Source: Escherichia phage EM1. From it: a stretch of DNA of 44,223 nt. The stretch is from sequence record PQ571293, one strand, 5' to 3'. Below, in pieces: positions 12,709 through 13,204 of this stretch. Every line of letters begins with the position of its first letter. The stretch's first letter is position 1. Under the pieces are notes generated by a model, which saw nothing but the letters and a program-made list of their open reading frames with translations, did not search any database and was not told the origin of the DNA. A program made the translations under genes and the position numbers.

Positions 12709-13095
12709 ATGAATCTTAAAGCAACTGTCGTAGCGGGGGCATGTTTCATCATCCTGGCTTACGCACACGGCATCTATCAGTACCGCAGCGGCTGGAACGA
12801 AGGCCGGGCGAATCTCGTTTCGCGGCAACAGCAGGAAGCACAGGCTGAGTTAGCGAAGAAAACACAACGGCAGCAGCAGGACGAATCGAAGGCCGCCGCC
12901 GCTGACAACGAAGGCAAGACGAAATCAGAGGTGATTACCCGTGAAGTCGTTAAGTACATTAAAACGCCTGGTCGCAGCGTGTGCACTTTTGACCCTGAGC
13001 GCGTGCAGCTCAAGTCCCGCTCCGTCGCCAACGCCAATTCCATCCCCGGATACGACGATGATGCAGCCACCGTGCAAACTGGCAGCACCAAGTAG
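12709..13095 (+). CDS. i-spanin (Rz-like)
   Basis: N-terminal TM helix (VVAGACFIILAYAHGIY) followed by charged coiled-coil region; embedded/overlapping lipoprotein ORF. Confidence 0.7.
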   Translation: MNLKATVVAGACFIILAYAHGIYQYRSGWNEGRANLVSRQQQEAQAELAKKTQRQQQDESKAAAADNEGKTKSEVITREVVKYIKTPGRSVCTFDPERVQLKSRSVANANSIPGYDDDAATVQTGSTK

Positions 13096-13204
13096 CGACG
13101 CGGACGAGGATTTAGCTATCGACGTCCAGAACGCCGAATGTGTACGGCAACTGCGCCTGAAGGTGTTCATGTTGCAGGATTACGTGAGGAATATTCTGGA
13201 ATAG
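12941..13204 (+). CDS. o-spanin (Rz1-like outer-membrane lipoprotein)
   Basis: GTG start in +1 frame inside Rz with GAGGTGA RBS; lipobox LTLSAC; Pro-rich mature region. Confidence 0.7.
   Translation: MKSLSTLKRLVAACALLTLSACSSSPAPSPTPIPSPDTTMMQPPCKLAAPSSDADEDLAIDVQNAECVRQLRLKVFMLQDYVRNILE

Follow-up and report, generated by a model that had tools for sequence, protein, structure and literature searches.

The segment at positions 12709–13204 of the Escherichia phage EM1 genome very probably specifies a two-component spanin from the overlapped family published under the name 'Jersey', carried by a virulent Kagunavirus and predicted to act as in the lambda Rz/Rz1 model. This functional assignment rests on homology, sequence signals and gene context. 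A conserved promoter and a structured leader precede the two genes, which are the first cistrons of their unit, lie directly upstream of the scaffold and capsid genes, and stand outside the holin-endolysin cassette. The spanin finding itself carries little weight, confirming a catalogued family and a published gene arrangement. Only the promoter and leader could raise something new here: the question of how late genes are started in virulent Jersey-like siphophages that depend on the host RNA polymerase.

The window, by which we mean the whole stretch of DNA analysed (44,223 bp), is a complete Kagunavirus (Guernseyvirinae) genome as judged by its length and gene order. The 1 kb around the spanin locus is 94–96% identical to many Escherichia Kagunavirus phages and is also related to Salmonella Jerseyviruses. 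The genome opens with small plus-strand ORFs, including the lysis cassette, and continues with terminase, portal, head-morphogenesis and Hoc-like genes, then a minus-strand dam gene, the spanins, the scaffold, capsid and tail genes, and finally replication genes on the minus strand.

An overlapped spanin pair

The initial annotation placed an Rz-like i-spanin and an Rz1-like lipoprotein in this segment, and both ORFs are present there with PHROG spanin matches. The i-spanin gene (12709–13095, plus strand) encodes 128 aa from an ATG start and matches phrog_2536 (2e-55). The o-spanin gene (12941–13204, plus strand), in the +1 frame relative to the i-spanin, encodes 87 aa from a GTG start and matches phrog_5672 (3e-30) and phrog_1267 (2e-20). 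All three profiles are named 'Rz-like spanin'. The i-spanin has a single hydrophobic segment, at its N-terminus (residues 5–23, KD19 1.72), and the remainder is predicted to be periplasmic. Two polyQ stretches, RQQQ and RQQQ, can be read from its sequence, and Cys92, its only periplasmic cysteine, is invariant in the alignment. A Pfam search returned no significant match to a lambda Rz or Rz1 model for either protein: the i-spanin matched DUF2514 only (E 0.0013, under its cut-off) and the o-spanin had no match at all. 'Rz-like' therefore denotes function and topology, not sequence homology.

The o-spanin carries the signals of a small outer-membrane lipoprotein. A Shine-Dalgarno sequence, GAGGTG, can be read 7 nt upstream of the GTG (12928–12933, plus strand), and the predicted lipoprotein signal peptide extends from the start to the codon of the putatively lipidated Cys22 (12941–13006; Cys codon at 13004–13006; plus strand). 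The N-terminus reads MKSLSTLKRLVAACALLTLSAC followed by SSS, with an L-S-A-C lipobox ending in Cys22, Ser and not Asp at +2, and a mature protein of 66 aa. The LTLSAC lipobox and the Pro-rich character initially reported are thus confirmed, 8 of the first 25 mature residues in the linker being Pro. Cys45 and Cys67 of the o-spanin are also invariant in the alignment and, with i-spanin Cys92, give both partners cysteines that would be available for intermolecular disulfides. An o-spanin gene is expected to be embedded in, to overlap or to lie just downstream of its i-spanin gene. Here the two genes overlap by 155 nt and the o-spanin ORF extends 109 nt beyond the i-spanin stop, so the architecture is 'overlapped', not embedded, which agrees with the earlier description of the lipoprotein gene as partly embedded.

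The pair is widely conserved, with i- and o-spanin homologues in about 650–660 phage records by tblastn. An i-spanin alignment was used to recover 80 loci from IMG/VR, and we read these as well as the locus in 9 GenBank relatives. Conservation of the lipoprotein ORF, on which the initial reading depended, was found in the 9 GenBank relatives, and the +1 frame is open in 80/80 IMG/VR loci, down to 37% i-spanin identity. A signal peptide with lipobox and Cys is present in 79/80 loci, the remaining locus having QCSC, and this combination is more than chance would give. Across these 80 loci the signal region is free to diverge while the lipobox Cys is retained. Invariant o-spanin residues in the alignment are C22, P44-C45-K46, D55-E56-D57-L58, C67 and L71-R72. 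The i-spanin falls to 61–75% amino acid identity in Jerseyvirus-type relatives, and the overlap varies among relatives from 194 nt to 4–14 nt ("separated"), a range already described for the Jersey family. As a minor variation, among relatives of the Kagunavirus type, whose o-spanins have 87 aa, about half have the lipobox shifted by one residue, ..STMLASC followed by SSP (Cys23) replacing ..LLTLSAC followed by SSS (Cys22) in loci L026, L028–L030, L032–L038 and L040–L042 (about 2733–2801); the overlapping i-spanin frame tolerates this shift.

It could be argued that the real second gene is a short ORF of 47–48 aa that starts at an internal ATG (13058/13061) and encodes no lipoprotein, since several GenBank records annotate ORFs of 144–147 nt and the PHROG 5672 profile spans 47 residues. 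We consider this scarcely credible: the 39 upstream codons stay open, and the signal peptide and lipobox persist in 79/80 loci despite sequence turnover, while the GTG has its GAGGTG Shine-Dalgarno sequence, relatives use ATG at the equivalent long start, and the long form is the one used both by phrog_1267 and in the published survey (Kongari et al., 2018). The evidence favours the long lipoprotein form as the predicted product, and PHROG 5672 (47 positions) is built on a truncated o-spanin. Many public records likewise annotate the o-spanin as a 41–48-aa ORF from an internal ATG, losing the signal peptide and lipobox (12941–13057 in EM1); such shortened annotations occur in relatives at L001 5839–5982, L002 5021–5167, L003 1531–1656 and L096 1518–1664. 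A practical consequence is that the long GTG/ATG o-spanin model should replace the truncated one in GenBank records and in the PHROG profile.

EM1 fits a family that has already been catalogued. Kongari et al. (BMC Bioinformatics 19:326) described the "Jersey" overlapped spanin family in 27 phages, among them Jersey, SETP3, wksl3, HK578, JL1 and the Kagunaviruses K1G, K1H and K1ind1-3 (Kongari et al., 2018). Jersey itself has a 155-bp overlap, Cys45 and Cys67 of the o-spanin are constant in the family, the first i-spanin subfamily has two polyQ stretches, and the i-spanin periplasmic domain is predicted to be helical or coiled-coil (Kongari et al., 2018). EM1 matches the 155-nt overlap, the two cysteines and the two polyQ stretches, its o-spanin is 95% identical in amino acids to that of K1ind2, and its i-spanin is 62% identical to that of wksl3 over 123 aa. 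We see nothing of substance that differs, and EM1 adds a further member, with an o-spanin that starts at GTG and has LSAC as its lipobox.

Relative to lambda Rz/Rz1, the EM1 pair shares the functional class and the topology, with an N-terminal transmembrane i-spanin and a Pro-rich lipoprotein o-spanin in the +1 frame. It differs in having no sequence homology detectable by Pfam, in being overlapped and not fully embedded, in lying apart from the holin and endolysin, and in its type of o-spanin, in which two periplasmic Cys are conserved and the C-terminus is predicted to be helical (Kongari et al., 2018).

Separation from the holin-endolysin cassette

The holin, second membrane protein and endolysin are all where the initial annotation placed them (2927–3981), as supported by PHROG and Pfam matches. 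The holin (2927–3235, plus strand; 102 aa, TTG start; phrog_2359, 4e-29) has about 3 hydrophobic segments and is followed by a second holin-like membrane protein (3228–3500, plus strand; 90 aa; phrog_2508, 2e-33), counterparts of which are termed holin class I/II or antiholin in relatives (PMC7203180, PMC6763661). The third gene (3478–3981, plus strand) encodes a soluble endolysin of the Phage_lysozyme/GH24 type (167 aa; PF00959, 5e-24; PDB 8HP8, 2e-87). No 19-residue window that starts in the first 12 residues of the endolysin exceeds a KD of 0.03, and no in-frame start is possible upstream of the ORF. This bears out the earlier statement that the enzyme has neither a signal nor a SAR sequence, and makes it reasonable to infer a cytoplasmic, holin-dependent enzyme. 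By eye, the endolysin has Glu17 but carries Ala where the E-x8-D/C-x5-T lysozyme motif has Asp/Cys, with a short insertion ahead of the motif Thr. Around the cassette lie small ORFs without annotation, encoded on the strand that also carries the structural genes, and they lend no support to its initial placement among early genes.

The i-spanin start lies 8,727 nt beyond the endolysin stop, in line with the distance of about 9 kb first estimated, and the spanins do not adjoin the endolysin as they would in a canonical contiguous holin-endolysin-spanin cassette. The flanking genes are also those initially named: a D12-class Dam methylase upstream (11636–12343, minus strand) and the head scaffolding gene downstream (13287–13991, plus strand; phrog_206, 7e-56), which starts 82 nt past the o-spanin stop and precedes the major capsid protein gene (13994–15043, plus strand; phrog_247, 7e-120). 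The dam gene, between the Hoc-like gene and the spanin promoter, is a variable insert among relatives: it is present in Salmonella phage S100, absent from vB_VIPECOTH07, replaced by a 204-nt ORF in Bas76, and replaced by other small ORFs in fBC-Eco01 and RP180.

The position of the pair in relatives bears on its function. A homologous pair (37–41% identity) lies immediately after a (SAR) endolysin in Klebsiella phage Kp4865-4 and in 14 of the 80 loci from IMG/VR, and in several of those loci and in Kp4865-4 an S21-like pinholin lies just upstream, which makes a canonical lambdoid cassette. These homologues (L010 5047–6293; L082–L095) come from Klebsiella-type phages and prophage-like contigs. 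The other 66 loci have head-morphogenesis or Hoc genes upstream and/or scaffold or capsid genes downstream, with no endolysin within 2.5 kb, and annotated Kagunavirus, Jerseyvirus and Dhillonvirus genomes likewise have the spanins in the head module. The occurrence of distant homologues directly after pinholin and SAR endolysin genes ties the spanin family to lysis, and its presence in both settings suggests that the module has moved between lysis cassette and head module. In Dhillonvirus Bas84 (L006 4548–4989) the i-spanin gene begins before the head-morphogenesis gene has ended (4548 vs 4555), with no promoter or leader, and Dhillonvirus spanin expression seems to be coupled directly to head-gene translation.

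That the 12709 protein might be unrelated to lysis was a concern from the outset. The pair could in principle be another inner-membrane and lipoprotein device of the head module, acting for example in superinfection exclusion or receptor blocking; its location away from the lysis cassette and the missing Pfam Rz/Rz1 match would allow this, and our literature search found no experiment on any Jersey-family spanin. We nevertheless regard such a role as very unlikely, given that the homologues close lysis cassettes in the 14 loci and Kp4865-4, that no other spanin candidate follows the endolysin in the EM1 genome, and that the overlapped i/o gene architecture and conserved periplasmic Cys are characteristic of spanins.

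We therefore retain the reading as a spanin, for which lambda Rz/Rz1 is the established two-component model, in which spanins are inert until murein is degraded. On that model, the EM1 i-spanin would be anchored in the inner membrane through its N-terminal helix, with a largely helical periplasmic domain, and the o-spanin would be exported, lipidated at Cys22 and, with Ser at +2, sorted to the outer membrane. The C-terminal regions of both proteins would bind each other, and disulfide-linked complexes would cross the periplasm through the murein mesh. Once the soluble endolysin, released by the holin, has destroyed the murein, the spanin complexes would be freed and the two membranes fused or disrupted. 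As the spanin genes come first in the scaffold-capsid unit, their position suggests that they are made with the late head proteins, which would be harmless because the complexes are inert until murein is degraded.

The separation of spanins from holin and endolysin is already known and is typical of the whole subfamily. The Schulenberg authors call the lysis loci "genetically separate" (PMC6763661), the same split between the holin pair with endolysin and the spanins has been published for fBC-Eco01 (PMC9825357), and the ORF numbers of Golestan show it too, ORF7-8 vs ORF66-68 (PMC7203180). In all three, as in EM1, the scaffold gene is preceded by i- and o-spanin genes that partly overlap. The T4 spanin genes pseT.3/pseT.2 are likewise remote from t (holin) and e (endolysin) (Kongari et al., 2018), although T4 has a separated architecture and an unrelated sequence family and keeps its spanins outside the head module. 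With the family catalogued and the split published for Guernseyvirinae and T4, the finding is not new.

The initial annotation further held that the lysis functions are divided between two transcription units, and sequence signals support separate units for holin-endolysin and spanins. Past the endolysin gene, on the plus strand, there are two strong predicted intrinsic terminators, one at 4110–4141 (10-bp stem, then UUUUAUUUU) and one at 4215–4247 (8-bp stem, then U8), both absent from the listing of the initial scan and confirmed by eye and by folding. A bidirectional terminator hairpin (11581–11601) between the Hoc-like gene and the convergent dam gene ends the terminase-to-Hoc block. The spanins have their own conserved sigma-70-type promoter (12456–12484, plus strand), with TTGACT and TAAGCT 17 nt apart and TGn (extended –10) at the end of the spacer. 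Four divergent leader types (A, B, C1, C3) keep the –35, the spacing, the extended –10 and the hexamer T-A-N-N-C-T, and in fBC-Eco01 this site carries an annotation as a host promoter. Our consensus promoter scan missed it, the –10 hexamer matching at 3 of 6 positions only, and inspection by eye confirmed it.

Two further observations concern these signals. A consensus-like promoter, TTGACA-17-GATACT (4147–4175, plus strand), lies past the first endolysin terminator and is followed about 40 nt later by the strong terminator at 4215–4247, so that 4147–4247 could yield a very short transcript. Similar AAGGCCCC-loop-GGGGCCTT hairpins occur at strand-switch points (11581–11601, 19435–19470, 31089–31124 and 37397–37429), and this hairpin family probably consists of bidirectional terminators.

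The initial annotation thought different timing probable, but two transcription units need not mean two times of expression. We give an even chance to a split without temporal meaning, in which one middle/late period covers the expression of both spanins and holin-endolysin genes and the location of the spanins in the head module is a legacy of modular recombination. Timing would not be critical for proteins that stay inert until murein is degraded, as in the lambda model, and the family's occurrence in the canonical cassettes of other phages indicates a mobile module; against this, the two loci have different promoter types and terminators between them. T4 provides a parallel in keeping its spanins away from t and e (Kongari et al., 2018). 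The transcriptome of K1B4, the only one we found for a Kagunavirus, places lysozyme, Mu-F-like head protein and capsid together in one 'middle' class (PMC12645636), as expected if the split has no temporal meaning, but its multi-cycle sampling is too coarse to settle timing, and the spanins are unannotated.

Conserved leader and regulatory sites

Of the 180 phage records that contain the 269 nt ahead of the i-spanin ATG (12440–12708), from both Escherichia and Salmonella phages, 179 are 95–99% identical over them, and this leader region is more conserved than the flanking coding sequence. Jerseyviruses have a diverged "type B" leader and other relatives have further types. Between the promoter and the ATG the leader measures about 220 nt, with a structured stretch at 12487–12690 (plus strand), and the transcript folds better than shuffled controls (z = –2.45). 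A scan of 12300–12760 against Rfam at E<=1 gave no match, and an ARAGORN scan gave no tRNA or tmRNA.

Folding and a covariance model built from 13 type A variants define a 5' domain (12487–12588, plus strand) with helices P1–P4 and a GUAA tetraloop. The model matches type B leaders at E values of 5e-6 to 2.5e-4. Since MAFFT on its own put P4 two columns off between type A and type B leaders, we used the covariance-model alignment instead. In this cross-type alignment, which is fitted to the model and covers few clades, 94% of cells pair and 15 of 29 pairs have changed on both sides; the covariation score was reached by 0/500 shuffles, and sliding the partners by 1–3 columns left at most 3 pairs with two-sided changes. 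For the type A leaders by themselves, the figures are 96% of cells paired and 4 pairs with changes on both sides. Helix P2 contains conserved G-U pairs, which assign the structure to the plus strand. MFE folding of the 3' half of the leader gave no consistent structure, several predicted pairs not being kept, and 25 nt before the i-spanin ATG there is a GC-rich hairpin (12665–12684, plus strand) that is terminator-like in EM1 and has compensatory changes in relatives.

These data suggest that the leader is probably a functional RNA of some kind; that it has a specific regulatory role is a more doubtful proposition. Two other readings of the stretch were considered. An sRNA ending in a terminator (12490–12690) is weakened by the U-rich tail of the final hairpin, which is found in type A only and not in types B/C. 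A 36-aa gene annotated in some records (12504–12614) is unlikely, as its start, frame and length shift by 1-nt indels among type A variants and the type B ORF has only a short in-frame motif in common with it (AFGRA.LYC). A micropeptide is conceivable.

Our preferred guess is that the leader is a cis-acting control of the late operon, working through antitermination, translation or mRNA stability, and possible modes include put-like or 6S-like antitermination, translation control and mRNA stability control. The closest formal parallels are the lambda PR'-6S RNA-tR' segment and the HK022 put RNA. These also have a promoter and a structured transcript of about 200 nt that ends in a hairpin before late or lysis genes, with stem-loops that begin within a few nt of the presumed transcription start. 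Unlike them, the hairpin here has no U-tract in type B and C leaders, and neither sequence nor Rfam relates the leader to them. We identified no Q-like protein, and antitermination by the leader is offered as a conjecture by analogy. The leader ahead of the spanins is not discussed in the papers on Schulenberg, fBC-Eco01 and Golestan, and a conserved structured leader at this site may be new to the literature.

Directly upstream of the –35 of the spanin promoter is a conserved array of TTATTCC / GGAATAA repeats and palindromes (12408–12449, plus strand), a presumed regulator-binding site, with TTATTCC-AG-TTATTCC and a GGAATAA-N-TATTC palindrome; leader types A, B, C1 and C3 share this layout with the promoter. 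GGAATAA is not enriched genome-wide (7 matches vs 5.7 expected), and the TTATTCC/GGAATAA cluster (12412–12442) is unique in the genome save for one copy before the scaffold gene (13216–13225). Of the matches, the cluster and the copy at 13219 alone look meaningful, and they are probably where a regulator binds. We tentatively propose, as a possibility that we would not bet on, that the spanin-scaffold-capsid block is controlled by the cis-acting leader RNA together with an activator-dependent promoter bearing the GGAATAA/TTATTCC sites. If true, Guernseyvirinae would time or dose the outer-membrane step of lysis and capsid synthesis by an RNA element separate from the control of holin and endolysin.

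The second copy of the repeat, between the o-spanin stop and the scaffold start (13216–13238, plus strand), reads GTTGGAATAA-TTTATTC-TTGACA. A different motif marks the dam gene, which is read leftward from a promoter carrying a repeated GAATAG-N4-CTATT motif that is found at several other sites in the genome. In the form (G/T)AATAG-N4-CTATT(C/A), this inverted repeat overlaps sigma-70-like promoters, that of dam among them, and lies at 1–28, 1304–1340, 12354–12389, 21890–21925, 33584–33613, 38124–38153, 40749–40778 and 40798–40822. The fBC-Eco01 authors took the same inverted-repeat consensus, in 7 copies, as a "phage promoter" for a phage polymerase (PMC9825357). No RNA polymerase gene was noticed in annotated relatives, and the repeat seems more likely to be an operator inside host-type promoters than a phage-polymerase promoter.
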